64,000 bases of DNA from Candidatus Multivoradales bacterium (GTDB lineage: Bacteria > Acidobacteriota > Thermoanaerobaculia > Multivoradales > JAHEKO01): contig OZ243123.1 in the NCBI GenBank assembly GCA_965212505.1, positions 4,624,313-4,688,312 of the forward strand. The letters are read 5' to 3'. Under the pieces are notes generated by a model. The model was not told where the DNA came from. It saw only the letters and a list, made by a program, of their open reading frames with translations, and ran no database searches. A program made the position numbers and the translations under genes. The first letter of the stretch is position 1, and each line of letters opens with the position of its first letter. Below are positions 8,835-33,700 of this stretch, one piece after another.

Positions 8835-8839
8835 ACCGC

Positions 8840-9253
8840 TCAGCCTTCGCGCTTTGCCGCGAGGGGCGTCACGACGCCGGAGGGGCCACCGGAATCGCTT
8901 GTGCGCTTCGGCGGTTCCATCGCGCAGCGGCCTTCGTAGAAGCCGCCCTCCTCGATCACCAGGGTCGGCGCCTGGATGTCGCCTAGAAGCCGGCCGCCGG
9001 CGTTGATTTCGATCCGCCGCTCCGCCTTCACGGTGCCCTTGAGAACACCCGAGACGTAGACGCGACCGACCTGAACGTCGCCGTCGACCTCTCCCCGCTC
9101 GCCGACCACGAGATCGCCCTTGGAGGTCACCTTTCCCTCCAACCGGCCGTCGACTCGGAACGTGTCCTCGAAGGACAGCTCACCCTGAATGCGGCTACCG
9201 GCATCCAAAAAACCGTTGAGATCGCCCTTGGCCTCGCCGTTCTTGAACATCAA
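8840..9253 (-). CDS. Bactofilin (DUF583 beta-helix cytoskeletal protein)
   Basis: Repetitive GxLxGxV beta-helix rungs (GELSFEDTFRVDGRLEGKVTSKGDLVVGERGEVDGDVQVGRVYVSGVLKGTV). It overlaps the parB stop by 4 nt on the same strand. Confidence 0.85.
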   Translation of the reverse strand: MMFKNGEAKGDLNGFLDAGSRIQGELSFEDTFRVDGRLEGKVTSKGDLVVGERGEVDGDVQVGRVYVSGVLKGTVKAERRIEINAGGRLLGDIQAPTLVIEEGGFYEGRCAMEPPKRTSDSGGPSGVVTPLAAKREG

Positions 9254-10089
9254 GCTTTCCTCTTCTTGATCAGAAGATCGAAGAGTCTCATCAACTCTTC
9301 TTCGTTGTGGAACGCGATCTGTACGGTACCGCCCGAGCCGCGCCTTCGAATTGTAACTCGCGTTTGCAGACTCCGGGTCAACCGCTCGGCCGCGGCGACC
9401 GTGTCGGCATCGACCTCGGGCGCCGCCTTCTTGGACGGTCGCGCGGAAACAAGCTTCTCCACCGCCCGAGCCGACAGCTTCCCGTCGGCGGCCTTCTTTG
9501 CGACTCGAATCTGCTCCTCTTCACTCGAGAGCGTCAGCAGCGGCCGCGCCTGGCCCGCGGTCAGTCGTCCCGCTTGGAGCAAGTCGAGCACATCTTCGGG
9601 AAGGCGAAGGAGCCGCAGCGCATTCGAAACGCTCGCTCGCGCCTTACCAACCTTGATCGCGACGTCCTCGTGCGAAAGGCCAAATTCTTCGTGAAGCCGG
9701 CGATAGGCTTCTCCCTCCTCGACCGGGTTCAGGTCGGTCCGCTGGAGATTCTCGACCAACGCCATTTCGAGCAGCTGTCGGTCGTCCGCAACTTCGCGAA
9801 TTGCCACCGGTACCTCTTCGAGGCCGGCGCGCGCGGCCGCCCGCCAGCGCCTCTCTCCGGCGACGATGGTGTAGTCGCCATCCGTACGCGGTGTTACGAC
9901 AAGCGGCTGAACGACACCCTGGCTTCGAATGGAGTTCGCCAGCTCCTCCAAGTCGGCGTCGTCGAACCGAACCCGAGGTTGGACTTTGTTCGGCTTGAGA
10001 CGCTCTAGAGGAAGCGACTGCTCGCCGGGAGATTCGATCTTCAGCAGGGCATCGAGACCGCGCCCGAGCCCTCTCTTCTTTGCACTCAT
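9250..10089 (-). CDS. parB: Chromosome partitioning protein ParB (Spo0J)
   Basis: [13 protein letters not shown]-terminus, the ParB box VQPLVV, and a HTH region. Confidence 0.9.
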
Positions 10090-10844
10090 CTGGCTCTTCT
10101 CAGCAGTTCCTGAGCCGCCGCGAGGTACGCCTCGGCGCCGCGGCTCTTGATGTCGTAATCGAGAATCGGTACGCCGTGACTTGGAGCCTCGGCGAGCCGA
10201 ACGTTTCTTGGGATGACCGACTCGAAGACTTTTCCGGCGAAGTGGCGCCGAACCTCGCCCTCGACCTCTTTCGAGAGGTTCGTTCGCTCGTCGAACATCG
10301 TCAGAAGGATGCCGGCGATACCCAACCGACGGTTCGCTCCGGACTGCACACGCCGGATCGTTGTCAGCAGCTCGCTGATGCCCTCGAGTGCATAGTACTC
10401 ACACTGCAAGGGAACCAGGACTCCATCCGCCGCGGCGAGAGCGCTCACGGTCAGGTGCCCGAGCGATGGCGGGCAATCGAGGAGCAGCACGTCGAACGAA
10501 TTGCGACTCTCCCGGATCGCGTTCGCCAGCCGGGCCTCCCACCCATCGAGCCGCACGAACTCCACCTCTACTCCGACGAGCTCCCGATCCGAGGGCACGA
10601 GGCTCAGGTTCGGAAAGCTCGTCGAACGAATCGCATCCGCGAGCGGCACACCATCAGAGAGCACGTGGTACAGCGTGGGGTGCTCCGCTTCGACGCCCAG
10701 CCCGCGACTCGCGTTTCCCTGCGGATCACAGTCGACGAGGAGTACTCGCTTCTCCAGGGCGGCGAGCGCCGCACCGAGATTGATCGCGGTCGTCGTCTTG
10801 CCGACGCCACCCTTCTGATTCACCACTGCGAGTACGTTTTGCAT
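10086..10844 (-). CDS. parA: Chromosome partitioning ATPase ParA (Soj)
   Basis: Deviant Walker A NQKGGVGKTTTAINLGAALA. Start moved to MQNVLAVV, overlapping the rsmG stop. Confidence 0.9.
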   Translation of the reverse strand: MQNVLAVVNQKGGVGKTTTAINLGAALAALEKRVLLVDCDPQGNASRGLGVEAEHPTLYHVLSDGVPLADAIRSTSFPNLSLVPSDRELVGVEVEFVRLDGWEARLANAIRESRNSFDVLLLDCPPSLGHLTVSALAAADGVLVPLQCEYYALEGISELLTTIRRVQSGANRRLGIAGILLTMFDERTNLSKEVEGEVRRHFAGKVFESVIPRNVRLAEAPSHGVPILDYDIKSRGAEAYLAAAQELLRRAR

Positions 10845-11500
10845 CAACTCGTTTGTTGTGAGGACGCCGCCCGGATCTGCTCGATCCTGCCGCGGCCTTC
10901 CCCAAGTTCTATCGAGCGCAGGCTTTCGAAACCCGCAGGTACTTCCAGCGCTGCGCTGGCCCAGACGAGGAAGGAGCCGCCCGGACGAAGCCTCCCGCCC
11001 AGAGCGCTCATCCACTCTGGTTCCAACCGGAGCGCTCGCGCCGTCACCCGATCGAAAGACTCCGGGAATGAAGACGGCAAAGCGGCGGCGACTCTAGCAT
11101 TCAGGCAGATGCACTCCAACGAGGAGCGATCCGCGACAGACCGCAGAAAGGCCCACTTACGCTGCCGGGGCTCAACAAGAACAACCTCCAGATCAGGGCG
11201 CGCCGCCGCGATCACGAGCCCCGGGAAGCCGGCACCCGACCCCACGTCGACCACAGGGCCGGCGGCGCCATCCAGAAGAGGCAGCACCGCAAGACTCTCC
11301 AGGAAGAGACGTTCCACCACCCACTGCGCCATTCCGCTGCCGACCAGCGCAACTCTGCGGTTCCAGCGCCGCAGCTCTCGATAGTGCTGATACATCGAAG
11401 CCGCGGACGCGCGAGGAATCGCAGAGGCGGAATCCCAACCCAATCGGTCAAGAAACTGGTCTTCGCTAAGATCTGGCAGCTCGACGCCCATGAAGCTCAC
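10844..11500 (-). CDS. rsmG: 16S rRNA (guanine527-N7)-methyltransferase RsmG (GidB)
   Basis: SAM-binding VVDVGSGAGFPGLVIA and the conserved gidB-parA-parB synteny. Confidence 0.85.
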   Translation of the reverse strand: MSFMGVELPDLSEDQFLDRLGWDSASAIPRASAASMYQHYRELRRWNRRVALVGSGMAQWVVERLFLESLAVLPLLDGAAGPVVDVGSGAGFPGLVIAAARPDLEVVLVEPRQRKWAFLRSVADRSSLECICLNARVAAALPSSFPESFDRVTARALRLEPEWMSALGGRLRPGGSFLVWASAALEVPAGFESLRSIELGEGRGRIEQIRAASSQQTS

Positions 11501-11532
11501 CCTCGCCCTGAGACTACCGCTGACCGCGCCCC

Positions 11533-11595
11533 TGTTTCACGGGGAACGTGACGGTGAAACAATCGAGGTTCCACGTGAATCCTGACGGTGAAACA
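11533..11595. promoter_or_regulatory. parS-like centromere motif cluster (split palindrome TGTTTCAC-N13-GTGAAACA, a 12/16 palindrome GGTTCCACGTGAATCC, and a second GTGAAACA)
   Basis: Perfect left and right halves of the TGTTTCACGTGAAACA consensus at 11533-11540 and 11554-11561, a near-palindrome at 11567-11582, and another right half at 11588-11595. All sit just upstream of rsmG-parAB. Confidence 0.45.
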
Positions 11596-11931
11596 ACAGC
11601 GGCGCTGAACCTGACAGAGTTCGAGGAGGGCTTCCTGGTCGGAATCCTCGTGGGCGAAGGGCATTTTGGGGGCGACGGCCGCCAGCCGCATGTCACCCTC
11701 CGAATGCACACCGACCACGAGGCCCTCTTCCTTTGGCTCGAAAGGCGTCTCCCTGGATCGAGGCTCTACGGGCCCTACCACCATGGCGGCCGAAGCTACT
11801 TCCAGTGGATGGCCCGCGGACCGTTCCTTCGGAAGCTCCTGCTGCCGCTCCTCGAGAGGCGGATCTCACCCGAGCTCGACACCAAAGCGTTCGAACGCTT
11901 CCAGGCGATGAAGAAACGCTACCGCCTGTAG
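11548..11931 (+). CDS. Small free-standing LAGLIDADG-like (homing-endonuclease-fold) protein, hypothetical
   Basis: Motif GFLVGILVGEGHFGG resembles LAGFVDGDGxF and is followed by an I-CreI-like hydrophobic pattern. The N-terminus is encoded by the parS-like repeats, so the true start may lie further downstream. The antisense ORF 11497..11784 is less protein-like. Confidence 0.4.
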   Translation: MTVKQSRFHVNPDGETTAALNLTEFEEGFLVGILVGEGHFGGDGRQPHVTLRMHTDHEALFLWLERRLPGSRLYGPYHHGGRSYFQWMARGPFLRKLLLPLLERRISPELDTKAFERFQAMKKRYRL

Positions 11932-13148
11932 GAATCGGAGCCGGCCGAGCGCTCTCCGGCGCTCGTGCGCACCATCACCCGCTTGAACAGCCCGCTGCCG
12001 TGACTCTCGGTCTCGACCCCCGGGTAGTCGGCCAGCGTGAGATGAACAATGCGCCGCTCATCTGGAGACATCGGCTCCAGGGTCTTCGGACGCCCCCCGT
12101 GCCGGACCTCGTCAGCCGCTCGCTGTGCCATGTCGCGCAGGCGCTCTTCGCGGATGTCGTGGTAGTTGTCGCTGTCCACTTTGCAGACTACCGAACGTCC
12201 GATCAAGCCCCGTACGACCCGCGGCAGGAGATGCTGAATAGCCAGCAGCAAACGGCCACGATCCCTCAGAAGTAGATCCTGGTCGGCTCCGCGTAGCTCG
12301 ATCTGAAGGTGCTCGTCACCCTGGAGGATCTCGCTCTCAACCACGAGGTCGGCCAACGAGAGGATGCTGTCGAGCGCCTTCGATGCGGCCTCCGCCTCTT
12401 CGCCCGTCGCTTTCGAGAACTTGGCCCCCGCGGGCACTGGCGCTTCGGCCAGCTCCACCCGGGTGCCCGCCTTGCTCCCGCCACGACCACGACGGCGGCG
12501 GCGCGAGCGACGGCGACGCGGGGGGCGGTTGTCCGACTCGTCCGCCGAACCTTCGGACTCTCGGGACGCCTCGGACTCCTCCAATCGGACGGGCGGTTCG
12601 TCGACCGTTTCGTCGGCCGGCTCGTCGACCGGCTCGTCAACGGGAGCTTCGGCCGAAACCTCGGCCGGTTGCATCCCTCGCTCTTCCGCCGGCTCCGGAT
12701 CCAGGCTCACGGCGGCGGCCATCTCAGACGGGGTCCACGACTCGGTCGGGAGCTCCGCAGAGCCCTCCTCAGAATCGGCCTCCGGCTCATCGAAGCGACC
12801 GACGGAGCTCGAGTCGTCGGTTCCCACTTCGAAACTCCACGTCGAACCGGTGGACCGATCCGCCTTCGGCTCGGGCGCGGCGTCCGCCGGCTCGACTGCG
12901 GGCTCTCGGTCGGCCGAAGTCGCGGTGGGTTCTACACTCGTCGAGATCGGCGCCACTCCCGACTCGCCACGTTTCGGGCTGAGCTCGTCCACTTCGATGA
13001 CCACCTTGCGCCGCACTTTGAGAAAGCCATGGCGCTTCTCGACGGTCTTGTAGTCGATCTCTCCCGGCAGCAGCTGAAAGTGCTGCGCGGCCTGATTCAG
13101 TGCGTGGGCCAGTGAGTCGCCCGAGAAAAAGCGTCGTTTCGAAGTCAT
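11919..13148 (-). CDS. jag: Jag/KhpB RNA-binding protein (Jag_N, KH and R3H domains) with long acidic/Pro-rich linker
   Basis: Jag_N region (FFSGDSLAHALNQAAQHFQL), a C-terminal KH/R3H region (RIVHLTLADYPGVETESHGSG), and position next to yidC. Confidence 0.8.
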   Translation of the reverse strand: MTSKRRFFSGDSLAHALNQAAQHFQLLPGEIDYKTVEKRHGFLKVRRKVVIEVDELSPKRGESGVAPISTSVEPTATSADREPAVEPADAAPEPKADRSTGSTWSFEVGTDDSSSVGRFDEPEADSEEGSAELPTESWTPSEMAAAVSLDPEPAEERGMQPAEVSAEAPVDEPVDEPADETVDEPPVRLEESEASRESEGSADESDNRPPRRRRSRRRRRGRGGSKAGTRVELAEAPVPAGAKFSKATGEEAEAASKALDSILSLADLVVESEILQGDEHLQIELRGADQDLLLRDRGRLLLAIQHLLPRVVRGLIGRSVVCKVDSDNYHDIREERLRDMAQRAADEVRHGGRPKTLEPMSPDERRIVHLTLADYPGVETESHGSGLFKRVMVRTSAGERSAGSDSYRR

Positions 13149-16012: not shown

Positions 16013-16102
16013 TGGCGGAGAGGGTGGGATTCGAACCCACGGATCGCTTGCACGATCAACGGTTTTCGAGACCGCCCCGTTCGACCACTCCGGCACCTCT
16101 CC
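16013..16102 (-). tRNA. tRNA-Ser (anticodon CGA)
   Basis: Manual fold gives GGAGAGG acceptor, D-arm GCCGGAGTGGTCGAACGG, anticodon loop CUCGAAA, a long variable arm, T-arm GGGTTCGAATCCCAC, and CCA encoded. About 90 nt. Confidence 0.85.
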
Positions 16103-16396: not shown

Positions 16397-16486
<90 letters not shown>

Positions 16487-17094: not shown

Positions 17095-17220
17095 GGGACC
17101 GAGGAAGGGTTCGGGTCCTGTGCACCGGCGGATTCCGAACCTCGTCAGGCCCGGAAGGGAGCAGCGATAAGGTCTCTTTGCCGGGTGCCGCAGATCAACC
17201 GGAACCCTTCCTCGACCCCT
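17095..17220 (+). ncRNA. ffs: Signal recognition particle RNA (4.5S / small SRP RNA)
   Basis: Domain IV core GUCAGGCCCGGAAGGGAGCAGC matches the bacterial SRP consensus GUCAGGUCCGGAAGGAAGCAGC. A terminal helix is formed by CGAGGAAGGGUUC (5') pairing with GAACCCUUCCUCG (3'). It lies immediately upstream of dnaX, a common synteny. Confidence 0.7.
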
Positions 17221-20859: not shown

Positions 20860-21517
20860 CATGGGCACCCTCGAGCTGATCACTCTCGTCGTGACGGTCC
20901 TGGTCGCTGTGGCGGGCTTGATCGTGTTGACGGCCGTCCTCCGGCATGCGCCGCGGAGCGAGGCGGGCCAACTCGTCGGCCAAGGCGAGTTCGCCGACGC
21001 CCTCGAGTCGGCAGACGTCGGCGCTGAGGCCGAGCGTGACGAACTGCTCGCCGCCGCCATCGCAGCCAAACATCTCGGCGACTTCGAGCGCTCGCGAGCC
21101 CTCACCGAGCGAGTGTTGACCCTTGACCACGACGACGGGGAAGCGTGGTTGGAGCTAGGGCTGTCTGCGGCATATTCCGGTGATGCCGAGCGAGCGCTCG
21201 AGGCGCTGTACGAGGCCGGCCGACGACGCGCCGACCTTCTGGAGTCGATCTCTCTCCACCGAGCCTGGGTCGAGCTTCAGGCGCAAGACGCGGTCGCGGC
21301 TCGTCGACGCTTCGAGGAGATCTCCGCGCCGATCGAATCGAAGCTTCGCAGCGATCTCGGCCCGGGCGATCCACTCTTCGCAGAGTGGTTTTTTCAGGCA
21401 GCCGACCTGTGGGAAGAAAGCGGCGCACTCGAGAAAAGTGCCTGGGCGCGACGAGAGGCCCGTCGCTCCGCACCGAATAGCCCGTTGGTCGAGAGGCTCA
21501 CCCGAGAAACCGGCTAG
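20860..21517 (+). CDS. Membrane-anchored TPR-like repeat protein, hypothetical
   Basis: N-terminal TM (LITLVVTVLVAVAGLIVLTAVL) followed by helical TPR-like repeats. Start moved to MGTLELI after the upstream gene's stop. Confidence 0.5.
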
Positions 21518-21614
21518 AAGCTCCACATTTGTGGAGGCCTTCGCTCGGAATTCTGGGGCTTCTCGCGGGGACTTCTTAACAGACACCCCGGCGGGCCGTA
21601 GCCACAATTCCACC

Positions 21615-22658
21615 GTGCCAATACCGGAGAAGATCAAGGCCCTCGAACTGTTCGCCCACTTCAGCGATCAGCAGATCGACCAGCTGTGCAGCAGCCTGAC
21701 CGAGATGTCGTGCCCCGCCGGCTCGACCCTCGTCTCTCGGGACGACGAGTCGTTCGAGGTCTACCTCCTGGCGGAGGGCTCCCTACGAGTCTGGGCGACG
21801 ACGCCCATCGGCGACTTCGAGTTCACCCGTCTGGCCAAGGGCGACCTCTTCGGAGAGGGGAACTACATCGACCGCCAAGGACGTATGGGTGAAGTCCAGG
21901 CGCTCACCGACGCCGAGCTTCTGGTCTTCGGTCAGTCGGACCTGGCCGCTCTGGCGGATCTCGACGCCGGCTTCGAGCGTGCGCTCTACTGGTGCTTCTG
22001 GAAGAGTCTCTCCGCAAAGCTGCGCGCCGCGAACCTCCACCTGACGCAGTTCTTCTCGCCGGGCGTCACCGCGGGGTCGAGGACCTCGACGCCGCAGTCG
22101 GCCAACCCGAGCCGAGCCTCCCGCGTCGACATGGCGGCACGTCGCGATCTCTTCCGTGAGCAGCGGCTGCCGAGCATGGAGATCAACTTTCTCTCGTCGC
22201 TCTCTACCGAAGAGTCGTACGAGCCTGGGGAGACCATCTTCCGAGAGGGAGACGACGGCGACAAGATGTACGTGATCGCCGACGGGCAGGTGATGATCAG
22301 CAAGTCCATCCACGGCGCCGGTGAGGAGGCGCTCTCATTCCTCAAGCGCGGCGACTACTTCGGCGAGATGTCGCTCATCGACAAGCGCAGCCGTTCGGCG
22401 GATGCGAAGGCACATCCCGAAGAGGGAGCCACGGTGCTCGGGTTGCGGCACGAAGTGGTGGAACAGATTCTCGACATCGACCGACTCTCGTCGATTCGCC
22501 TACTGAAGATTCTCTGCCGGCTCGCCACCGAGCGGCTGCGCAAGATCAACGAGAAGCTCCTCGGCTGGCACCTGGTCAGCGGCGGCGCCATGGCCGCGTC
22601 TCCAGAACCCAGCGCCGATCGCCTGGTGGTGAGCCCGGACCTGAGCGAAGCCGTCTAA
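21615..22658 (+). CDS. Protein with two tandem cyclic-nucleotide-binding (CAP-effector) domains
   Basis: Two cNMP-binding signatures (GDLFGE...G and GDYFGEMSLID...RSA). The 5' part of ORF 21180 overlaps the preceding gene in another frame, so the start was taken as GTG near 21615 (uncertain). Confidence 0.6.
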   Translation: MPIPEKIKALELFAHFSDQQIDQLCSSLTEMSCPAGSTLVSRDDESFEVYLLAEGSLRVWATTPIGDFEFTRLAKGDLFGEGNYIDRQGRMGEVQALTDAELLVFGQSDLAALADLDAGFERALYWCFWKSLSAKLRAANLHLTQFFSPGVTAGSRTSTPQSANPSRASRVDMAARRDLFREQRLPSMEINFLSSLSTEESYEPGETIFREGDDGDKMYVIADGQVMISKSIHGAGEEALSFLKRGDYFGEMSLIDKRSRSADAKAHPEEGATVLGLRHEVVEQILDIDRLSSIRLLKILCRLATERLRKINEKLLGWHLVSGGAMAASPEPSADRLVVSPDLSEAV

Positions 22659-22756: not shown

Positions 22757-23797
22757 TCACGCGCGATCTGCCATCCGCAGGATCTTCTGAAGCAGCGACG
22801 AACTCGCGAGCTCATCGATCTCTGCCGGCGCGAACCAACCCGACTCCTCACCTTCGGCCAAACTCGAGCCGGCGTCGACCTCGCCGAAGAAGACCTCGAT
22901 CTCGAGTGCTCGGTGGGTGATCGTGTGCCGCACGCGACCGACCCTCTCACTCAGACTCCAGCTCCCTCCATAGGCGCGGCTGAGACTCGCCTCGGGGGTG
23001 GCACCGTCCCCTTCCGGCACCCAGGGCACCTCCCAAATGCCCGCCAGGAGCTCGCAGTCATCCGGCCGCCGGAAGAGTAGGGTGCGCGCACGGTCGCGAA
23101 CGACGACGCTCACGTGGCGCTCGCGGCGTGGCTTCTTGCGTTCGGCGAGAACGGGGTATCGCTCAGAATCTCCGGCCCGAAGAGCGACACAATCTTCGTC
23201 AAGCGGACAGAGCCCACACTCGGGCGAGCGCGGCTTGCAGACGGTCGCTCCGAGCTCCATGAGTGCCTGGTTGCTATCGCCGGGCCGAGCCGAATCGAGC
23301 AAGCGCCTCGCCGACTCGACCACTCGACGCCGACCGGCACTCCGTTTCGGATCTGCCTCGAGTGCCAGGTAGCGGCTCATGACTCGCTCGACGTTCCCGT
23401 CGACGACCGGCTCCACGATGCCGAACGCGATACTGCCAATCGCCGCTGCCGTGTAGGGCCCGATGCCGGGAAGCTCTCGGAGGGTCTCGATCGTGCTCGG
23501 GAACCCCGTCCCCGATGCGACGATTTGACGCGCTGCGGCATGCATTTGTCGCGCTCGTCGGTAGTAGCCCAGACCGGACCAAGCTGCGAGCACCTGATCG
23601 ACCTCGACGGCTGCCAAAGAGGCGAGGTCGGGAAAGCGCTCCAGAAAGCGCTCGAAATACGGCAGAACCGTCTCCACACGCGTCTGCTGGAGCATGATCT
23701 CGGAGATCCAGACGCGATAAGGGTCCTGGTCTCTTCGCCAGGGGAGCTCTCGCCGTGCGCTGTCGTACCAGCGGAGAAGATCCTCTGCGGCCCCCAT
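22757..23797 (-). CDS. mutY: A/G-specific adenine DNA glycosylase MutY (with C-terminal NUDIX-like domain)
   Basis: HhH-GPD (RELPGIGPYTAAAIGSIAFG), a 4Fe-4S cluster loop (CKPRSPECGLCPLDEDC), and a WISEIMLQQTRV N-terminus. Confidence 0.85.
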   Translation of the reverse strand: MGAAEDLLRWYDSARRELPWRRDQDPYRVWISEIMLQQTRVETVLPYFERFLERFPDLASLAAVEVDQVLAAWSGLGYYRRARQMHAAARQIVASGTGFPSTIETLRELPGIGPYTAAAIGSIAFGIVEPVVDGNVERVMSRYLALEADPKRSAGRRRVVESARRLLDSARPGDSNQALMELGATVCKPRSPECGLCPLDEDCVALRAGDSERYPVLAERKKPRRERHVSVVVRDRARTLLFRRPDDCELLAGIWEVPWVPEGDGATPEASLSRAYGGSWSLSERVGRVRHTITHRALEIEVFFGEVDAGSSLAEGEESGWFAPAEIDELASSSLLQKILRMADRA

Positions 23798-24295
23798 GGG
23801 AGCTCGACTGTAGCCCAGCGGCCGCCATTTTGGCGGCAGAGGCCAAAACAAGGAGAAATCGCTGGCCTTGACGCCATAGCTGACGCCACGCCGGGAGGCG
23901 CGACATCGAGCTGGCTACTTGTTTAGGAAGTGAAAGGTGGTTGAGGGGGGAGGTTCTCGGGAGGTGGGAGTTTGAGGTTCTACCCCTGTGCAAGTAGGGG
24001 ATTTAGGCGAGATCTTCTTAGGAGTGTGAAGCCTAGCGACCTCTTTCAAAGGTGAGAATAAAACTGGAAAGGGAACCTCCCCGCTAACCAGGTTCTAAAC
24101 TGCCCTCAGAACAAAGCAATCCGTGTGCCAAACCTCCCAAAAGACCTCCGCCCAAACCTCCGCTCGATGTGCCGTGTGACAAATCGCCAGAGAGGCCCAG
24201 TAGGATGTTGCACCCCGCTCGGCTGTGTAGTTACAATGACCGCCGCTTCGGCGAGATTCCAATACTCTCGGCTCGCCCTGCTGAGCCGCATTTTC

Positions 24296-24327
24296 TTTTT
24301 CCACAGGTTGTGGACGCCCTGTGGAAA
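24296..24327. promoter_or_regulatory. Inverted pair of DnaA-box-like 9-mers overlapping the dnaA start (TTTTCCACA ... TGTGGAAAC; perfect 10-bp inverted repeat TTTCCACAGG/CCTGTGGAAA)
   Basis: Each 9-mer is within 1-2 mismatches of TTATCCACA. Positioned for dnaA autoregulation. Confidence 0.5.
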
Positions 24328-24347
24328 CCAGGTGCCCTTGTCTTCGA

Positions 24348-25637
24348 ATGGCTGATTCTCTCTGGAAACGCTTACAAGATCGACTGAGGCGGGACCTGGA
24401 TCCCGATGAGTTTTCGACTTGGATCAAGCCACTCAAGGTCCGTAACGAAACTCCCGACTCGATCGAGCTAGAAGCACCCAACCAGCGGTTCCTCCACATG
24501 CTGGAGGCGAGCTATCGCCCCCAAGTGGACCGAGCCATCGCGGGCGTTGCAGACACCTCTTGCGAGGTCCTCTTTTCGGTCGAGCCGTTGGCTGTAACGG
24601 GTCAGATCGAGGCGCGTTCGAGCGACCAGTTCAACCCTCGTTACATTTTTGAAACATTCGTCGTCGGCAACTCGAATCAGTTCGCCCACGCCGCCTGCCG
24701 AGCCGTCGCCGAGACCCCGGCGAAGAGCTACAACCCGCTCTTCCTCTACGGAGGGGTCGGTCTCGGGAAGACGCACCTTCTGAACGCCATCGGCTGTCAG
24801 ATCGAGCGCGCTCGCCCCGACCTCAAGATCCTCTACCTGACCGCCGAGCAGTTCGTGAACGACCTGATCAGCTCGCTGCGCTTCAACAAGATGCCGGATT
24901 TCCGGGAGCGCTACCGCAGCATCGACCTGCTGCTGGTGGACGACATCCAGTTCCTGGCCAACAAGGAGCGCACGCAGGAGGAGTTCTTCCACACCTTCAA
25001 TACGCTCTATACGAGCCAGAAGCAGATCATCCTGTCGTCCGACTCCTCGCCCCGGAACATTCCGGCACTCGAAGAGAGGCTGCGGAGTCGGTTCGAGTGG
25101 GGCCTGATCGCCGACATTCAGCCGCCCGACCTCGAGACCAAGGTCGCCATCCTGCGACGGAAGGCCGGCAATGAACAGATCGAGCTGCCCGACGACGTGG
25201 CGCTCTTTATCGCCCGCCAGGTGCGCTCCAACATCCGCGAGCTAGAAGGCCTTCTGAATCGAGTGCTCGCCTTCTCCTCTCTGACCGCTAAGCCGCTGTC
25301 GCTCGAGCTGGCCAAGGAGACGCTCAAAGACATCCTGCCGCCGGAAGACCAGCGAACCACGGCCGGCGAGATCATCAAGTTCGTCGCGCGCCACTACGGC
25401 CTGCGGGTCACCGAGATCAAGAGCCGGAAGAACTCCCACCAGATTGTCTTCCCCCGTCAGGTCGCGATGTACCTCTGCAAGAAGCTGACGGACCTCTCCT
25501 TCCCCGAGATCGGCAAGCAGTTCAACGACAAGCATCACTCGACGGTGATGTACTCGGTGGAGAAGATCGAAGGTCAACGAGCGACCAACGAAGACCTCGA
25601 CCGGACCATCCAGAAGATGGTCGAGCACTTCAGCTAA
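24348..25637 (+). CDS. dnaA: Chromosomal replication initiator DnaA
   Basis: AAA+ motifs (GGVGLGKTHLLNAIG, LLLVDDIQFL), a C-terminal DNA-binding domain (VFPRQVAMYLCKKLT..HHSTVMY), and an N-terminal LWxxLxxxL. The internal ATG MADSLWKRL is preferred over the GTG at 24321. Confidence 0.95.
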   Translation: MADSLWKRLQDRLRRDLDPDEFSTWIKPLKVRNETPDSIELEAPNQRFLHMLEASYRPQVDRAIAGVADTSCEVLFSVEPLAVTGQIEARSSDQFNPRYIFETFVVGNSNQFAHAACRAVAETPAKSYNPLFLYGGVGLGKTHLLNAIGCQIERARPDLKILYLTAEQFVNDLISSLRFNKMPDFRERYRSIDLLLVDDIQFLANKERTQEEFFHTFNTLYTSQKQIILSSDSSPRNIPALEERLRSRFEWGLIADIQPPDLETKVAILRRKAGNEQIELPDDVALFIARQVRSNIRELEGLLNRVLAFSSLTAKPLSLELAKETLKDILPPEDQRTTAGEIIKFVARHYGLRVTEIKSRKNSHQIVFPRQVAMYLCKKLTDLSFPEIGKQFNDKHHSTVMYSVEKIEGQRATNEDLDRTIQKMVEHFS

Positions 25638-25657
25638 CGCGTCGCGACTGGGCGAAC

Positions 25658-28327
25658 CTACTGAAGGTCGGGGAAGGCCTCGGCCCAGTTCTGGACCACG
25701 ATCACATCCGAGCGCCGAGCGCTCAGCTCCTTGACGGCAAGGAACGTCTCCCCGTCGGGGGCGACCTCCCACCCCCGCCCGAGCACGAAGTCGGCACCGT
25801 CCATGTCGAAGAGGACACGGGGCGCGCCCAGGCGGACTTCCGGTAGAGCCGAGACATCCGCAGCCATCATCGCGTTCTGCGTGGTGGGCCGGATCTCGCC
25901 GTAGTACTCCGTCTGCATCAGTCGCTGCCACCAGTAGAGAGCGTGACCATCGGGCGACCACCTGGGATCGCCACCGCCCTTCTGAGAGACCTGCCATCGC
26001 CCCTCGAGGCTGGGGAATCGCGTCAGGTAGACCTCGCTCCTTCCGGACTCGTTCGACTGGTAGGCGAGCAGGGTGCCGTCGGGGGAGAGCTCTGGGTTGA
26101 CGTAGCGCTTCGGTCCCACGAAGACCGGCACCGGGCTGCGGTCGCCGGCCAGGTCCATCTTCAGGATGTCCTGCTGAAGACGCACATCCCAGGTTGCGTA
26201 GACCATCGTCCCACCGTCGGGGCTAAAGGTGAACCGCCCGCCACCCTGACCGAGATCTTCCGGCTCCCGCGAGCCCTCGACGCCCATCAGCATGATGCGG
26301 TTCTTCTCGGGGTCCCAGTCCATCTGCTGGCGGCGCCAGAAGACGACCTGCCGACCGTCCGGTGTCCAAGCCGGTCCAGCGCTGTCGTGCTCTCCCTGAG
26401 TCAGGCGCCGCTCGGTCTGGCGGACTCGATCGTAGACGTAGATGTTGGAGATCCAGGTCTCCAGGGTCGCTTTGGCGTACACGATGCGACCGCCGTCCGG
26501 CGAGACCCGAGGCGTGTACAGATCTTCGGTCGGTGGCCCCTCGACCGCCACGATCTTTCCCTCGAGATCGACCCAAACTAGCTGCGTCGACACCCCTTCC
26601 GCGCGTGTGAGGTACGCCAGCTTGCCGTCGCTCGAGAGAGCAGGTAGAACACCTCCCGCAGCGATCAAGCGCGGCTCGCCCGTGACCTCCAGGCTCTCGG
26701 TGGAGAACGACATCGCGTAGATCCCCGGGTTGCTGCCCCATCGGCTGAAGAGCAGCTGTCCAGCGGGCGAATAGGCGAGACCCCAGAGATTGGTGTCTCG
26801 GTCGAAGACGTGGATCTCTTCGCGCTGTCCGTTCCGGATCGCCTCGAGCTTGCCGACCGCTCGCGTCTCGTGGGGGTTGACCAAGAGCGTCTCTCCATCC
26901 GGCAAGAGGATGAGATCGTGAAGATCGACGAGATTCTCGTCCGGCTCCAAGATCTGCTTGAGATCCCCGCCACCGACCGAGAGCTCATAGAGCCCTCCTC
27001 GCCATTTCGAGAGGAAGATCTTTCCGGACGGCGACCACGCTCCGCTCAGAACGCGGAACCCCTCAGGCAGCGAGGCGACGACCCGTTCTCGGAGCGTCTC
27101 GGCGTCGAGCCTCCACAACTTCTCGTCCTTCTGGTAGGCCAGCTCCTTCCCGTTCGGCGACCAGAACGGCGAGGAGATGCCGATCAGATCCGGATGTGTT
27201 CGCGGCTCGATCTGATCCAGATCGCGAATGCTGAGCTTCGTTCGTTCAAGCAGAAAGACGCGCGCACCGTCGGGCGAGAGGATCGGGCCGAACTCCATGC
27301 CGGCCTCGTGCTCGCCCACTTTGAATCGGTGAACCGGTAGCTCGACTCCGACCTCCGGTCGATTGAGAAGGCCGAACCCGAGCGCCAGCGCCGCGATCGC
27401 CCATGGAAGGAGGCGTAGCCAGATGGGCGTGCTGCGACTCGAGGTGGGATCCGGCTCGGGCGACTCGGTCGATTCGTCTTGCCAGCGAGCGATCGCGATC
27501 CTCGCCTCCCCGATCGCTTGGAGTCGATCTCGAGCCCCCTTTTCGAAGCAGCGCTCGAGAAGTTCTCTGATCCGCGAAGGGGTCTCTTTCGGAAGCGAAC
27601 TCCAATCCGCTTCGCGCGCGAGGATGCCGGCGAGGGTGTCCGACACCGTGCCGGCGCTCCAGACCGGGCGCCCGGTGAGCATCTCCATGAGGATGACTCC
27701 GAAGGCCCAGATGTCCGACCGTCGGTCGGCGGGTTCACCTCGCGCCTGTTCGGGCGACATGTACGCCGCGGTTCCCATCAGGAGGCCCGCAGTGGTCATG
27801 TTCGCTGTCAAGGTCGGCGAGTTGGTCATCGACGGCGCGACCTCGTCAGGCGTCTCGTCGAGCGCCTTGGCCAGACCGAAGTCGAGGATCTTCAATGTGC
27901 CGTCGGGTGCCAGCTTGACGTTGGCCGGCTTCAAGTCGCGATGAACGATGCCGCGTTCGTGCGCACTCTCCAGCCCTTCGGCGATCTGGGCGGCGATCTC
28001 GAGAGCGTCGGCGAGTGGCACCGGTCCGCGGTCCAAGCGCTCGGCGAGCGTCTCGCCCTCGACCAGTTCCATGACGAGGAAGTGCGCACCCTCGTGCGAG
28101 TCGACGTCGTGGATCGAAGCGACGTTCGGATGGTTGAGAGCGGCCAAGAGTCGAGCCTCCCGCTCGAATCGCGCCAACCGTTCCGCGTCGTCGGTGAATC
28201 CGTCCGGCAGAACCTTCACCGCCACCTCTCGGCCGAGCCGCGAGTCGGTGGCTCGATAGACCACGCCCATGCCGCCCTCGCCGAGCTTGGCCGTCAGTTG
28301 GAAGTGGGAGAGCGTCTTACCGATCAT
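25658..28327 (-). CDS. Ser/Thr protein kinase fused to TolB-like (PD40/WD40) beta-propeller repeats
   Basis: Hanks kinase motifs (GEGGMGVVY, VAVK, HRDLKPANV, DFGLA, APE), a TM segment, then repeated SPDG/WSPDG beta-propeller blades. Start taken as MIGKTLSHF. Confidence 0.85.
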   Translation of the reverse strand: MIGKTLSHFQLTAKLGEGGMGVVYRATDSRLGREVAVKVLPDGFTDDAERLARFEREARLLAALNHPNVASIHDVDSHEGAHFLVMELVEGETLAERLDRGPVPLADALEIAAQIAEGLESAHERGIVHRDLKPANVKLAPDGTLKILDFGLAKALDETPDEVAPSMTNSPTLTANMTTAGLLMGTAAYMSPEQARGEPADRRSDIWAFGVILMEMLTGRPVWSAGTVSDTLAGILAREADWSSLPKETPSRIRELLERCFEKGARDRLQAIGEARIAIARWQDESTESPEPDPTSSRSTPIWLRLLPWAIAALALGFGLLNRPEVGVELPVHRFKVGEHEAGMEFGPILSPDGARVFLLERTKLSIRDLDQIEPRTHPDLIGISSPFWSPNGKELAYQKDEKLWRLDAETLRERVVASLPEGFRVLSGAWSPSGKIFLSKWRGGLYELSVGGGDLKQILEPDENLVDLHDLILLPDGETLLVNPHETRAVGKLEAIRNGQREEIHVFDRDTNLWGLAYSPAGQLLFSRWGSNPGIYAMSFSTESLEVTGEPRLIAAGGVLPALSSDGKLAYLTRAEGVSTQLVWVDLEGKIVAVEGPPTEDLYTPRVSPDGGRIVYAKATLETWISNIYVYDRVRQTERRLTQGEHDSAGPAWTPDGRQVVFWRRQQMDWDPEKNRIMLMGVEGSREPEDLGQGGGRFTFSPDGGTMVYATWDVRLQQDILKMDLAGDRSPVPVFVGPKRYVNPELSPDGTLLAYQSNESGRSEVYLTRFPSLEGRWQVSQKGGGDPRWSPDGHALYWWQRLMQTEYYGEIRPTTQNAMMAADVSALPEVRLGAPRVLFDMDGADFVLGRGWEVAPDGETFLAVKELSARRSDVIVVQNWAEAFPDLQ

Positions 28328-28559
28328 CCGCGGTGCCTTCGGACCCCTGGGAGGCCCTCGCCGCCAACCGCTGTCCATTCGACAGCGCGTACTCCCTTCC
28401 TGCCAGGTGTAATGGATAGTAGCGAATCTGCTCGCGGACGGGGTTCTCTGGAAGCGCTGGCGAGCCTGCTAACCGCCTTCGACGAGCTGCTATACGCCAT
28501 CTCAGGGAGCCCCGAACACACCCAAGTCGTCGCAGACCCAGGCTGGCCACCGAGGGTGT

Positions 28560-28830
28560 CGAGGGGCGAAAAAGAGACCCGGCCCACGGGGAGCGCCTGT
28601 GCGAGAGGCTGTGGATCTCCGCGTCATTCCTCTGTGAAGAACTTGTGGATTCTGACGACCCTTCGGTCTTCCTCCATCGCTCCACAACTCATCCACAGGC
28701 CTTTTCCTCGATCTGCGGTGGGCAAGAGTGCTTTCGTGGTCCGACTTCGAGTGAAATCCTTCGTTTCGACAGCCCCTACTACGACTACTTCTATACTAAG
28801 ATTCTGTTTCTTCTAGTCGGAGTAGATCTC
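28560..28830. promoter_or_regulatory. Candidate oriC: DnaA-box cluster plus AT-richer unwinding-element-like segment immediately upstream of dnaN
   Basis: TGTGGATCT (28609-28617), TGTGGATTC (28643-28651), and TCATCCACA (28688-28696) are each within 2 mismatches of TTATCCACA. They are followed by locally AT-rich CTTCTATACTAAGATTCTGTTTCTTCTAG before the dnaN Shine-Dalgarno. Confidence 0.5.
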
Positions 28831-28831
28831 T

Positions 28832-29929
28832 ATGGAAATTCGCGTAAATCGCAGTCACTTTCTGGGGGAGCTGGGTCCCATGCAAGGGATCGTGGAGCGT
28901 CGTACGACGATTCCGGTCCTCTCTCACATCCTTCTCACCACCGCCGAAGACCGTTTCAACATGGCGGCTACAGATCTGGACGTCTCGCTGACTTCGTCGT
29001 GCGATGCGGAGATCATCGGGGAAGGAGGGATTGCGGTTCAGGCGCGGAAGTTCGTCGAGATCATCCGCGCGGTCAACGCGGAAGAGGTGCGACTGGTCCT
29101 CGAGGACGAGAAGCGTCTCGGTATCGAGGCCGGGAATTCACGCTTCAAGATCAACGGCCTCTCGCCTGAGGACTTCCCAACGCTGCCGAGCGTTCCGAAC
29201 GACGACGCGGTCGAGATTCCGTTCGCTGCGGTGAAGCGCATGATCTCCAGAGTGATCTTCGCGGTGTCGACGGAAGAGTCGCGCTTCCAGCTCAACGGTG
29301 CTCTGCTGGGCTTCAAAGACGGTGCCCTCGAGATGGTCGCGACCGACGGCCACCGCCTCGCGCTGATCGAGAACGGTCTCGAGAACGGCGTCGCTGCCGA
29401 CGGCGTACTGGTACCGCGCAAGGCGCTCCAGGAGCTGATGCGCTTTGAGGGTGACGAGACGATTTCGTTCAGTCGGAGTGATCACCATCTCTCCTTCCGA
29501 CTCGGTCGCCGCGAGCTGATCTGTCGCATCCTCGAGGGGACGTTCCCCGACTACGAGCGCGTCATCTCCAAGGATAATGACAAGCAGGTGATGTTCGATC
29601 GGAAGACTCTGGCCGAGGCCGTTCAGCGCGTGGCGCTGCTCACCGGCGATCGCGCACGCGCCGTGCGGATGAGCTTCTCCGACGGCAAGCTCATGATCTC
29701 GGCGGCCAACCCGGATCTGGGCGAGGCGGTCGAGGAGCTCGAGTGCAACTTCGCGGGCGGTGAGCTGAGGATCGGCATCAACCCCGACTACATGAATCAG
29801 TTCTTGTCGGCGGTCGACACCGATCAGGTGCGCTTCGAGCTCAAGGACGAGAACACGCAGTGCGTCGGCTTCCCGGTCGACGGGTCGGACGAGCGATACC
29901 TCTGCGTGATCATGCCGATGCGCGTCTAG
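28832..29929 (+). CDS. dnaN: DNA polymerase III beta sliding clamp
   Basis: Three-domain clamp; MEIRVNRSHFLGELGPMQGIVERRTTIPVLSHILL is a typical DnaN N-terminus. Confidence 0.95.
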   Translation: MEIRVNRSHFLGELGPMQGIVERRTTIPVLSHILLTTAEDRFNMAATDLDVSLTSSCDAEIIGEGGIAVQARKFVEIIRAVNAEEVRLVLEDEKRLGIEAGNSRFKINGLSPEDFPTLPSVPNDDAVEIPFAAVKRMISRVIFAVSTEESRFQLNGALLGFKDGALEMVATDGHRLALIENGLENGVAADGVLVPRKALQELMRFEGDETISFSRSDHHLSFRLGRRELICRILEGTFPDYERVISKDNDKQVMFDRKTLAEAVQRVALLTGDRARAVRMSFSDGKLMISAANPDLGEAVEELECNFAGGELRIGINPDYMNQFLSAVDTDQVRFELKDENTQCVGFPVDGSDERYLCVIMPMRV

Positions 29930-29941
29930 TCTGACGCGCAG

Positions 29942-31015
29942 GTGACCGAGTCCACCCTCACTCGCCTCTACAGTCGCGACTTCCGCAACCTCGAAGAGCT
30001 CTCCTGGCAACCGGGCCAGGGGCGGCATCTGCTGCTCGGCGACAACGGCGCCGGCAAGACGAGCTTGCTCGAGGCGCTGTATGTGCTCGCGACGACGCGT
30101 AGCTTCCGGGCCTCCCGGCTCGCCGACTGCGCACGACACGATACGGAGAGCTTTCGCCTCGGCGGAGAGATCGCCGGAGACGCGCGAACCGAGCTCGAGC
30201 TGGTCCTGGGCCCGGAAGGAACGTCCCGTCGCCTCAACGGGAGCCCAGCGAGCCTCCAAGAGCATCTCTCGGTTCTTCCGCTGGTCGCCTGGACGGCCGC
30301 CGATCTCGAGTGGATTTCGGGCGCGCCGGCTGCGCGGCGTCGACTGATCGACCGCGGTGTCGTCGGTTTGACTCCGGCGGCCATCGTGTCGCTCTCTCGC
30401 TACCGTCGAGCCTTGGAACACAAACGGGCACTTCTCGCGCATCGGGAGACCGGACTCGAGGCTTGGAACGAGGTTCTCGCCGAGGCGGCCGACGACCTCA
30501 TTCGCCGGCGGCGTGCACACGTCGAGGCGCTATCTGAAGCGCTCGCCGAGCTACTCGAAGAGTGCGAGATCGAGCTTCCCTCGATCTCACTCACCTATCG
30601 CCCGTCTCCGGCGAACGGTGGGCGCGGTCTCGACGAGACGCTGGCGGCCATCGAGTCTCACCGTTCGAGTGAAGTCGATCGGCGGTCGCCGCTGGTCGGG
30701 CCCCACCGAGACGAGCTCGACATTCGGTGGGGCGGTCATGGTGCGCGCAAGGTCGCCTCCGCCGGAGAGAGGAAGCTTCTCGGACTTGCGATCACTGCTG
30801 CCAGTGCGCGACTGCTCGCGGCCTCGGGCCGTACTCCGGTACTACTTCTGGACGACCTGGACGCTGCGCTCGACAGTCGTCGTCTCGGCGCCGTCTGGTC
30901 GTTCTTCGAGCCCTTCGAGCAACTCTTCGTGACTTCGAATCGAGCCGCTGTATGGGAGCGATTCGACCTCTCGAGCGCCTGGAATCTCACCTGTGGAAAA
31001 CTCTCCCCACGGTAA
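29942..31015 (+). CDS. recF: DNA replication and repair protein RecF
   Basis: Walker A GDNGAGKTSLLEA, an ABC signature, and Walker B LLLDDLDA. Confidence 0.9.
   Translation: MTESTLTRLYSRDFRNLEELSWQPGQGRHLLLGDNGAGKTSLLEALYVLATTRSFRASRLADCARHDTESFRLGGEIAGDARTELELVLGPEGTSRRLNGSPASLQEHLSVLPLVAWTAADLEWISGAPAARRRLIDRGVVGLTPAAIVSLSRYRRALEHKRALLAHRETGLEAWNEVLAEAADDLIRRRRAHVEALSEALAELLEECEIELPSISLTYRPSPANGGRGLDETLAAIESHRSSEVDRRSPLVGPHRDELDIRWGGHGARKVASAGERKLLGLAITAASARLLAASGRTPVLLLDDLDAALDSRRLGAVWSFFEPFEQLFVTSNRAAVWERFDLSSAWNLTCGKLSPR

Positions 31016-31273: not shown

Positions 31274-33700
<2,427 letters not shown>

Follow-up and report, generated by a model that had tools for sequence, protein, structure and literature searches.

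Gene order at the dnaA–dnaN locus

Open reading frame (ORF) calls and Pfam searches revealed the order dnaA (plus strand), a Ser/Thr kinase gene (minus strand), dnaN (plus strand), recF and gyrB in the window, i.e. the whole 64-kb (64,000 nt) stretch of DNA analysed here. By comparison of DnaA, which is 64–78% identical to Thermoanaerobaculia DnaA, the host genome belongs to this class of the Acidobacteriota. The genes of the locus and the junction between dnaA and the kinase gene are located as follows.

22757..23851, minus strand: mutY-like glycosylase gene (Pfam HhH-GPD and NUDIX_4), conserved left neighbour of the dnaA region
24348..25637, plus strand: dnaA, 429 aa from the probable start ATG 24348; the ORF reaches back to GTG 24321
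25638..25657, no strand: exactly 20 bp separating the stop codons of dnaA and the kinase gene, which converge here; left insertion junction
25658..28327, minus strand: inserted Hanks-type Ser/Thr receptor kinase gene, intact, 889 aa from the probable start Met18
28832..29929, plus strand: dnaN (beta clamp), 365 aa, Pfam DNA_pol3_beta domains 1–3
29942..31015, plus strand: recF, in the usual order after dnaN
31277..33700, plus strand: gyrB, in the usual order after recF

The adjacency of dnaA and dnaN, with the origin between them, is among the most stable gene orders in bacteria. In the window, dnaA, dnaN, recF and gyrB are all present, on one strand and in the usual order, and a 2.67-kb antisense gene lies where dnaA and dnaN would otherwise adjoin across a non-coding spacer. 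A preliminary description of this DNA had likewise seen the pair parted by an antisense gene encoding a kinase with a TolB propeller; ORFs and Pfam confirm all three genes, and the ~20 bp it gave between the kinase and dnaA stop codons proved to be 20 bp (25638–25657). Its ~450-bp gap between kinase gene and dnaN holds when counted from the first ATG (453 bp) but grows to 504 bp from Met18. DnaA itself carries the domains Bac_DnaA (1.2e-71), DnaA_N and DnaA_C (Bac_DnaA_C). Its translation probably begins at ATG 24348 (MADSLWKRLQ) and not at GTG 24321, because relatives align from the former and three DnaA-box cores occupy 24297–24328. Neither strand of 25638–25657 contains a canonical intrinsic terminator. 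A bidirectional terminator between the two stop codons was rejected: shuffled sequences fold as well as the plus strand does, and the minus strand, although its fold shows some stability (z = –2.3), has no U-tract.

Among relatives, 135 distinct acidobacterial loci contain both genes (26 of them Thermoanaerobaculia-like, DnaA identity 64–78%), and in all 135 dnaN directly follows dnaA on the same strand, at distances of 109–738 bp and with no gene in between. Another 22 loci without dnaN, all ending at most 450 bp past dnaA, were left out of this count. The kinase-split arrangement is hence seen in one of 136 lineages, a singular interruption of a preserved order and no product of chance, and the synteny comparison proposed earlier finds the kinase between dnaA and dnaN in none of the 135. 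Since the pair is intact and without an intervening gene throughout these loci, the kinase gene is a lineage-specific insertion. Parsimony favors insertion over loss as the direction of change; a split arrangement that was ancestral and lost elsewhere was ruled out on the same grounds, with 135/135 loci adjacent. The closest relatives reached a DnaA identity of 72–78% in the genome collection and 73% in the metagenome collection, and none has the kinase at this position.

The flanking order is largely shared. The mutY-like gene occupies the same position in those Thermoanaerobaculia-like relatives whose loci extend far enough, and dnaN–recF–gyrB is common to most of these relatives, the exceptions being L001 (recF undetected) and L082 (dnaN followed by neither recF nor gyrB). 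At the same spot as the insertion, L003 and L007 possess ~480 bp and ~220 bp, respectively, of extra non-coding DNA. Relative L082 (contig Ga0315336_1000012, covered to 4.6 kb past dnaN) has another Ser/Thr kinase gene converging on dnaN, the two stop codons being ~15 bp apart; its product combines HAMP with a kinase domain at the C-terminus (37% identical in this domain), and the gene occupies a different position from the one studied here. Ser/Thr kinase genes were not enriched near dnaA, with four in 2.07 Mb of dnaA-centred loci.

A predicted receptor kinase and its leader

The kinase gene and the non-coding DNA upstream of it comprise the following parts.

~27515-28300, minus strand: kinase domain (Pfam Pkinase)
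~27362-27424, minus strand: transmembrane segment (hydropathy peak)
~25661-27310, minus strand: TolB/PD40-like propeller (Pfam PD40 and TolB structure matches)
28328..28575, minus strand: non-coding leader, or promoter region, of the kinase gene, 248 bp, part of the inserted block

The antisense ORF (25658..28378, 906 aa) matched Pkinase (1.5e-49) and PD40 (1.2e-24) in Pfam, with scores of 169.2 bits for the kinase domain PF00069 (cut-off 31.7; residues 27–288 of the 906-aa ORF) and 86.1 bits for the propeller repeats PF07676 (cut-off 20.9). Translation probably starts at Met18 (28327, MIGKTLSHFQL), because the database copy, P0001, is 889 aa long and the nearest homologue aligns from this residue. 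The ORF, domains and transmembrane segment of the 906-aa protein described at first therefore stand, while its length is probably 889 aa. In this shorter numbering, the catalytic motifs GEGGMG, VAVK, HRD, DFG and SPE lie at positions 16, 35, 129, 149 and 191; judged by its catalytic domain and motifs, the protein is a Hanks-type Ser/Thr protein kinase. A single hydrophobic segment (residues ~302–322) separates the kinase and propeller halves and predicts a periplasmic location for the propeller. The C-terminal half matches solved TolB propellers, e.g. 2hqs_A (E 4.1e-16 over ~230 residues).

A comparable build is known from Mycobacterium tuberculosis PknD, a receptor Ser/Thr kinase with an extracytoplasmic beta-propeller sensor. 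Both proteins have an N-terminal Hanks kinase, a single transmembrane helix and a C-terminal propeller outside the cytoplasm (predicted for the present kinase). Yet the propeller is of the PD40/TolB type here and of the NHL type in PknD, and the protein in the window is a member of a very large acidobacterial family of paralogous sensor kinases. Indeed, more than 8000 homologues were found, the next best after the self match being 49% identical. With P0002 (49% identity), the kinase aligns end to end without a frameshift. A frameshifted ORF, considered earlier as a possible annotation error, is thereby discounted: the reading frame is intact and aligns with the nearest homologue to the last residues. 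The closest homologues (49–41% identity) are scattered, the four nearest residing in four unrelated neighbourhoods and two of these four adjoining another kinase paralogue; no paralogue was found elsewhere inside the 64-kb window. Most likely, the kinase does what its thousands of paralogues do, sensing a periplasmic cue and phosphorylating cytoplasmic targets. Its gene points away from the origin, converging on dnaA, and is therefore co-directional with the leftward replication fork.

Kinase gene and leader form an added block of ~2.94 kb (25640–28575). The leader (28328–28575; GC 64.5%) has a GC3 of 0.62–0.69 in all six frames, compared with ~0.8 in genes, and a hidden small gene within it was ruled out, as no frame showed coding-type GC3. 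It falls outside the block alignable with relatives and, compared with the spacers of relatives and with all loci retrieved, showed no significant similarity; likewise, no homology to these was found for the dnaA 3′ junction. An Rfam search of the whole window at gathering thresholds returned nothing but two tRNAs and an SRP RNA, all distant from the locus, and a search of 23700–28900 at E up to 1 returned nothing credible.

The retained spacer and its origin-like module

Adjoining dnaN, the segment 28576–28831 aligns collinearly with the entire spacers (mostly 231–300 bp) of 20 relatives and agrees with them in where the boxes lie, in the tandem pair 11 bp apart, in the box-GC-CTN repeats and in its AT-rich end. 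By this alignment, the ancestral spacer is kept intact next to dnaN. The earlier suggestion that an insertion split an ancestral dnaA–dnaN pair is thus borne out, both by the adjacency in 135/135 loci and by the relatives’ whole spacer being recognisable beside dnaN. Its elements, together with the boxes upstream of dnaA, are listed below.

24297..24328, no single strand: upstream DnaA-box cores TTTTCCACA (plus), GCGTCCACA (minus) and GTTTCCACA (minus), just upstream of the dnaA ATG
28576..28831, plus strand: ancestral dnaA–dnaN spacer with oriC-like module and dnaN 5′ region, GC 54%, ~255 bp
28610-28618, minus strand: DnaA box AGATCCACA, cluster 28610..28697
28644-28652, minus strand: DnaA box GAATCCACA, same cluster
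28678-28686, plus strand: DnaA box CGCTCCACA, same cluster
28689-28697, plus strand: DnaA box TCATCCACA, same cluster, 11 bp from CGCTCCACA
28763..28793, plus strand: candidate unwinding module (box / GC spacer / CTA-repeat)
28763-28771, plus strand: degenerate proximal box GTTTCGACA, 3 mismatches to TTATCCACA
28772-28775, plus strand: GC spacer GCCC between proximal box and repeats
28776-28793, plus strand: CTA CTA CGA CTA CTT CTA; 3′-GAT-5′-type DnaA-trios on the complementary strand
28794..28822, plus strand: AT-rich stretch holding a –10-like TAAGAT (28797-28802) and the dnaN ribosome-binding site (RBS) GGAG (28819-28822)

Four TCCACA cores lie within 88 bp (28610–28697), and this cluster and the one at 24297–24328, likely an autoregulatory or upstream box cluster, are the two densest of their kind in the 64-kb window. 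Relatives show the same arrangement, with two boxes pointing leftward and a tandem pair pointing rightward. As for unwinding, a basal system has been described as a DnaA box at most 16 bp from at least three NAN trios (PMC8287927). Box and trios of this description occur at 28763–28793, where five of six triplets have a central A on the complementary strand. Because this published criterion is permissive and the box has three mismatches, support for the trio module comes mainly from relatives, in which box, 4-nt GC spacer and CTN repeats are likewise placed at –61 to –76 relative to the dnaN ATG. GC content is lowest (35–42%) at 28768–28830, and the cumulative G–C minimum of the 64-kb window falls at 28960. 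These sequence signals and their conservation suggest that 28576–28831 is a functional origin.

The predicted origin resembles the Bacillus subtilis type: an origin-like module downstream of dnaA and directly upstream of dnaN, in which rightward boxes lead via a short GC spacer to trinucleotide repeats of the CTA type and on to AT-rich DNA, with a second box cluster upstream of dnaA. It differs in that a 2.94-kb antisense block parts dnaA from the module and in that the proximal box is degenerate. With this block in between, dnaA and dnaN therefore cannot be co-transcribed as they are in B. subtilis. Work in that species shows that the stretch separating dnaA from the proximal boxes tolerates replacement as well as extension by hundreds of base pairs (PMC6669920).

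Upstream of the dnaN start (20–55 nt), TAnnnT was present in 26 of 26 sequences (at –50 to –20) and TGnTAnnnT in 18 of 26, compared with a mean of 0.6 and a maximum of 4 in shuffled controls; the –10-like element of the window is without the TG of the extended form found in most relatives. As a sigma-70 consensus scan of 23800–29000 found no promoter, it is this conservation that argues for a dnaN promoter. Given a conserved TAnnnT-type element upstream of dnaN in relatives, a proximal promoter probably served dnaN before the insertion. That a split-off dnaN needs a promoter of its own, as pointed out previously, is sound reasoning, but the need is probably not a new one, the element being found in 26/26.

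Origin and meaning of the insertion

We interpret the arrangement as a tolerated lineage-specific insertion next to the chromosomal origin, not as new replication control (probability roughly 0.8); most likely, one gene from a large family of paralogous sensor kinases came to lie in the one permissive spot beside oriC. The ancestral order would have been mutY(–)/dnaA/~250-bp spacer/dnaN/recF/gyrB, with a spacer that combined DnaA boxes and a DnaA-trio-like unwinding module (box / GC spacer / trios) with a promoter-like element close to dnaN. The ~2.94-kb block would have inserted into the short non-conserved interval, a few bases long, that separates the stop codon of dnaA from the first DnaA box, bringing in a complete membrane receptor kinase gene (predicted product: a Hanks kinase in the cytoplasm and a TolB-like beta-propeller in the periplasm, joined by one transmembrane helix) along with 248 bp of its own upstream non-coding DNA, and leaving the origin/dnaN module intact beside dnaN. 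Read-through from the dnaA promoter into dnaN–recF–gyrB should no longer be possible, so that these genes would be expressed from the conserved element 20–40 nt before the dnaN RBS, an element that probably already served dnaN expression earlier.

Alternatively, the kinase might have been recruited beside oriC, regulating replication initiation or being regulated with it, which we consider unlikely. DnaA at the boxes could control the divergent kinase promoter; DnaA, DnaN or a regulator of initiation could be a substrate of the kinase; or origin opening could be aided by transcription of the kinase gene leading away from oriC. In favour of such coupling, the kinase leader adjoins the DnaA-box cluster, the start codon lying 283 bp from the nearest box, and the intact kinase gene is read in the direction leading away from the origin. 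A Ser/Thr kinase gene also converges on dnaN in L082, which could hint at a non-random association, and such genes are otherwise sparse near dnaA (the four in 2.07 Mb). There is also precedent in B. subtilis, where the Hanks-type kinase YabT phosphorylates the replication controller YabA (PMC5871692). However, the arrangement occurs in 1 of 136 lineages, the kinase of L082 differs in architecture and position, and the present kinase is a predicted periplasmic sensor from a family of thousands that shows no association with replication. The co-regulation with origin firing proposed earlier fares no better: the nearest homologues sit in four unrelated contexts, and the DnaA boxes nearest the kinase are ancestral rather than gained with it, because they are conserved in relatives that lack the gene. 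A kinase–replication link is thus not supported, and a functional one is probably absent.

In its fullest form, which appears quite improbable, the coupling would have the kinase join the regulatory neighbourhood of the origin and tie an envelope signal to initiation through a DnaA-responsive promoter, supercoiling and maybe factor phosphorylation. If so, the kinase promoter in the 248-bp leader would respond to DnaA occupancy; transcription of the kinase away from oriC, replacing read-through from dnaA, would alter supercoiling and origin opening; and the L082 kinase would represent a second, independent recruitment of a kinase to the dnaA–dnaN locus.

Under the preferred reading of a tolerated insertion, the block may stem from a resident paralogue that was relocated or duplicated. 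Recent arrival of foreign DNA, by a mobile element or horizontal transfer, is unlikely, even though the block is a discrete unit with a leader unmatched in relatives and a kinase whose best non-self match is 49% identical. This value equals the ordinary divergence of orthologues from the nearest sampled relatives (MutY mostly 48–59%, RecF 37–55%), and a resident origin therefore fits equally well. The base composition of the insert is native, its GC and GC3 being indistinguishable from those of neighbouring core genes (GC1/2/3 of 0.68/0.47/0.81 for the kinase gene, 0.60/0.38/0.82 for dnaA and 0.64/0.38/0.84 for gyrB). The kinase is the sole gene of the block, which contains no mobility gene (transposase, integrase) and no tRNA; direct or inverted repeats flanking it were limited to short matches at chance level, with no target duplication or terminal repeats. 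It thus lacks the mobility gene, repeats and deviant composition of a mobile element or genomic island. That mobile DNA can enter this spacer is indicated by IS6110, for which a 1998 report and Turcios et al. 2009 appear in the reference list of PMC3701491. As in the insertions so listed, more than 1 kb of extra DNA is tolerated here in an origin-containing dnaA–dnaN spacer, as a lineage marker and not a conserved feature; in contrast to them, the insert is no insertion sequence but a complete cellular signalling gene of native composition.

Misjoining of the kinase segment into the spacer during metagenome-derived assembly or binning is very unlikely: although the source is apparently a single 5.12-Mb contig of an uncultured lineage and the arrangement is unique, both junctions lie in unique sequence without a repeat to mislead an assembler, composition and GC3 match the flanking genes, and a chimera would require two precise breakpoints within 3 kb that deliver exactly one gene plus leader, with the stop codon of dnaA undamaged on one side and the ancestral spacer undamaged on the other.

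In Escherichia coli, oriC is flanked by gidA, reading away from it, and mioC, reading towards it; the kinase gene is similarly transcribed away from the predicted origin directly beside it. Actinobacteria have an origin-proximal pknA/pknB Ser/Thr kinase cluster within a few tens of kilobases of dnaA. Those genes are conserved and do not lie between dnaA and dnaN, whereas the kinase gene described here is confined to one lineage.

Most likely, one among very many sensor-kinase paralogues was caught up in a neutral rearrangement, and the importance of the event is accordingly modest. Viewed as a natural experiment, this genome suggests that neither an adjacent dnaA nor transcription arriving from it is needed for the origin core or for dnaN expression, and it marks the handful of bases that follow the dnaA stop codon, up to the first DnaA box, as a permissive insertion site. 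The comparison also brings out a conserved candidate origin architecture for Thermoanaerobaculia, an uncultured class: trios of the CTA type, preceded by a GC spacer and a DnaA box, stand at a fixed distance of ~61–76 nt from the dnaN start.

Gene order between mutY and gyrB

ORF listing and Pfam scans of the window bore out, with small coordinate corrections, the preliminary description of an antisense kinase gene lying between dnaA and dnaN.

Genes of the window around dnaA (ORF listing and Pfam) and RNA genes (Rfam)
16016-16102, - strand, tRNA gene
16400-16486, - strand, tRNA gene
17109-17207, + strand, small SRP RNA
21180-22658, + strand, cyclic-nucleotide-binding protein gene
22757-23851, - strand, mutY
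24321-25637 (ORF), + strand, dnaA
25658-28378 (ORF), - strand, gene for a Pkinase and PD40 protein (906 aa)
28832-29929, + strand, dnaN
29942-31015, + strand, recF
31277-33700, + strand, gyrB

The true dnaA start is likely ATG 24348 rather than the ORF start at 24321, because DnaA proteins of relatives align from this ATG and three DnaA-box cores occupy 24297-24328. Similarly, Met18 (28327) of the 906-aa ORF is the likely kinase start, since the database copy of the protein (P0001) has 889 aa and the alignment with the nearest homologue begins at Met18. Only 20 bp separate the dnaA and kinase stop codons in the sequence, and no canonical terminator was found between these convergent genes; their transcripts probably overlap. 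The kinase possesses all catalytic motifs (GEGGMG, VAVK, HRD, DFG, SPE), a single hydrophobic segment (residues ~302-322) and a C-terminal half matching solved TolB propellers (E 4e-16), which together point to an intact receptor-type Ser/Thr kinase; the alignment with its nearest homologue extends from Met18 to the C-terminal end without frameshift.

A 445-aa ORF on the + strand (27479-28816) lies antisense to the kinase gene and continues over its leader and the DnaA boxes; we rejected it as a gene, as it is a typical high-GC artefact and a mis-annotation risk. Rfam gave no matches in the window besides the two tRNA genes and the small SRP RNA. Just 5′ of the three boxes at the dnaA start lies a terminator-like hairpin (CGGCTCG...CGAGCCG) with a T-run (24269-24288, + strand), for which neither a preceding + strand gene nor an Rfam RNA that it could terminate was found.

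dnaA-dnaN adjacency among relatives

Seeded with DnaA, a scan covering one genome per species returned Acidobacteriota, the best matches (64-78% identity) being labelled Thermoanaerobaculia; a scan of metagenome contigs with DnaA yielded none closer (best 73%). When DnaA, DnaN, RecF, GyrB, MutY and both kinase halves were mapped onto all 160 loci, dnaN followed dnaA on the same strand in 135 of the 135 distinct loci holding both genes, at a distance of 109-738 bp (for the 26 Thermoanaerobaculia-like loci, 234-738 bp and mostly <300 bp). All 22 loci that gave no dnaN match end ≤450 bp after dnaA. The order cNMP-mutY-(sppA)-dnaA-dnaN-recF-gyrB is retained in most of the class, with recF undetected in locus L001 and both recF and gyrB missing after dnaN in locus L082.

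The dnaA-dnaN synteny break is real and rare (1/136 in the phylum sample). Far from the arrangement being universal among relatives, the kinase occupied the gap in 0 of the 135 loci, and no other gene was found there in any mapped locus. Given this adjacency, parsimony suggests that the kinase gene was inserted secondarily in the lineage of the window, in agreement with the earlier proposal that an ancestral dnaA-dnaN pair had been split.

Locus L082, which encodes the most similar DnaN (74.5%), carries an 854-aa HAMP and C-terminal Ser/Thr kinase gene (8677-11241, - strand) convergent with dnaN (7564-8661), with ~15 bp between the stop codons; neither recF nor gyrB was found in the 4.6 kb that follow. 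L082 represents a second, independent break in origin gene order, involving a different kinase.

A retained origin-like module and a probable dnaN promoter

When the 260 bp preceding dnaN in the window were aligned with those of 20 relatives, 28576-28831 proved collinear with the whole spacer of the relatives.

Elements of the module, common to the window and relatives
28610-28618, - strand, leftward box
28644-28652, - strand, leftward box
28678-28686 and 28689-28697, + strand, two rightward TCCACA boxes, 11 bp apart
28763-28771, proximal box GTTTCGACA (TCCACA or TCCGCA in relatives)
between proximal box and CTN triplets, 4-nt GC spacer
28776-28793, CTN triplets (CTA CTA CGA CTA CTT CTA in the window)
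3′ of the CTN triplets, AT-rich stretch, then ribosome-binding site

Where the proximal box could be anchored, it lies 61-76 nt from the dnaN ATG. Throughout the 64-kb window, TCCACA cores cluster at two sites only (24300-24325 and 28610-28697); the cumulative G-C minimum falls at 28960 and GC content is lowest (35-42%) at 28768-28830. We take CTA on the box strand to correspond to 3′-GAT-5′ on the other strand, partly by analogy with the B. subtilis sequence. The window's box, GC spacer and CTA-repeat layout agrees with the basal unwinding system as published (PMC8287927), in which at least three trios, with the consensus 3′-GAT-5′ on the bound strand, lie ≤16 bp from a DnaA box; this criterion is permissive, and the window's proximal box is weak. 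The argument for the retained segment 28576-28831 as a candidate origin therefore rests mainly on class-wide conservation. The B. subtilis unwinding region likewise lies between dnaA and dnaN (PMC6669920). With an origin at ~28.8 kb, the kinase gene would be co-directional with the leftward fork and dnaA head-on to it, the latter as in every relative.

The kinase leader (28328-28575, 248 bp) has a GC content of 64.5% vs. 54% in the conserved part, shows coding-type GC3 in no reading frame and matched nothing in relatives or any fetched locus. As 28576-28831 is collinear with relatives and the leader is unlike that module, the inserted block would span ~25640-28575 and comprise the kinase gene with its own leader. 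Its site is the short non-conserved stretch from the dnaA stop codon to the first box. At this very spot, two relatives have extra DNA before the box cluster (~480 bp in L003, spacer 11342-12079, 738 bp, without coding signal; ~220 bp in L007, spacer 480 bp), hence the spot tolerates additions.

With the antisense kinase gene in between, dnaN cannot be reached by simple dnaA read-through, and in this respect the earlier notion that dnaN needs its own promoter holds. It is probably not a new need, though: TAnnnT occurs 20-50 nt before the dnaN ATG in 26/26 sequences, and the extended TGnTAnnnT in 18/26 (shuffled controls: mean 0.6, maximum 4), the window having TAAGAT (28797-28802) without TG. 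A proximal dnaN promoter thus probably predates the insertion, an inference still, as a strict sigma-70 scan of 23800-29000 found no promoter. The conserved TGnTAnnnT (-55 to -20 from the dnaN ATG) overlaps the AT-rich end of the module; a single stretch may serve as both promoter and unwinding element.

Source of the kinase gene and competing readings

A tolerated insertion next to an origin/dnaN module that stayed intact is the best explanation for the synteny break; added DNA at this site has a precedent in IS6110, which inserts in the dnaA-dnaN region of M. tuberculosis (references in PMC3701491). The locus is valuable mainly as a natural test of an origin's dependence on its neighbors, and through the comparison, which revealed a conserved architecture of the putative origin in Thermoanaerobaculia.

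The suggestion that the kinase is co-regulated with origin firing found no backing. Functional coupling to replication could draw on the gene's closeness to the boxes, its transcription away from oriC, the other, HAMP-containing kinase gene convergent with dnaN in L082 and a precedent for replication regulators as targets of Hanks kinases (PMC5871692), but is very unlikely: the boxes are ancestral, the arrangement is unique, and the surroundings of dnaA show no enrichment in Ser/Thr kinase genes (4 in 2.07 Mb). No link between what the protein does and replication emerged.

As to the source of the tolerated insertion, the kinase family is very large (>8000 matches, a lower bound), and the full architecture is present in each of the 120 best. 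Among the matches listed, the best non-self one (P0002) has 49% identity, comparable to the divergence of MutY (mostly 48-59%) and RecF (37-55%) between the window and its nearest sampled relatives; P0002 might even be the orthologue, still in the original neighborhood. The next four homologues examined lie in four unrelated neighborhoods, two of them near another paralogue. Recent arrival of foreign DNA is highly improbable, as the insert lacks mobile-element marks (no flanking repeats or mobility gene were found) and compositional deviation, its GC1/2/3 (0.68/0.47/0.81) matching flanking core genes. The simplest account is that a resident sensor-kinase gene was relocated or duplicated via illegitimate recombination; a donor genome of similar composition could also have supplied it by transfer. 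An assembly chimera is very unlikely, with two clean junctions, both in unique sequence, bounding exactly one complete gene.

The left side of dnaA is variable, too: the signal-peptide-peptidase gene sppA (Peptidase_S49) lies between mutY and dnaA in ~17 Thermoanaerobaculia-like relatives (e.g. L082, 4147-5856; L001, 8199-9842), and is absent there from the window (23852-24347) and from L004, L007, L011, L013, L014, L017, L018 and L022. Finally, three MAGs titled 'uncultured Bifidobacterium' or 'Bifidobacteriaceae' (L026, L063, L066) carry Vicinamibacteria-like dnaA(-dnaN-gyrB) loci, with DnaA ~50% identical to that of the window; these bins are probably mislabelled or contaminated.
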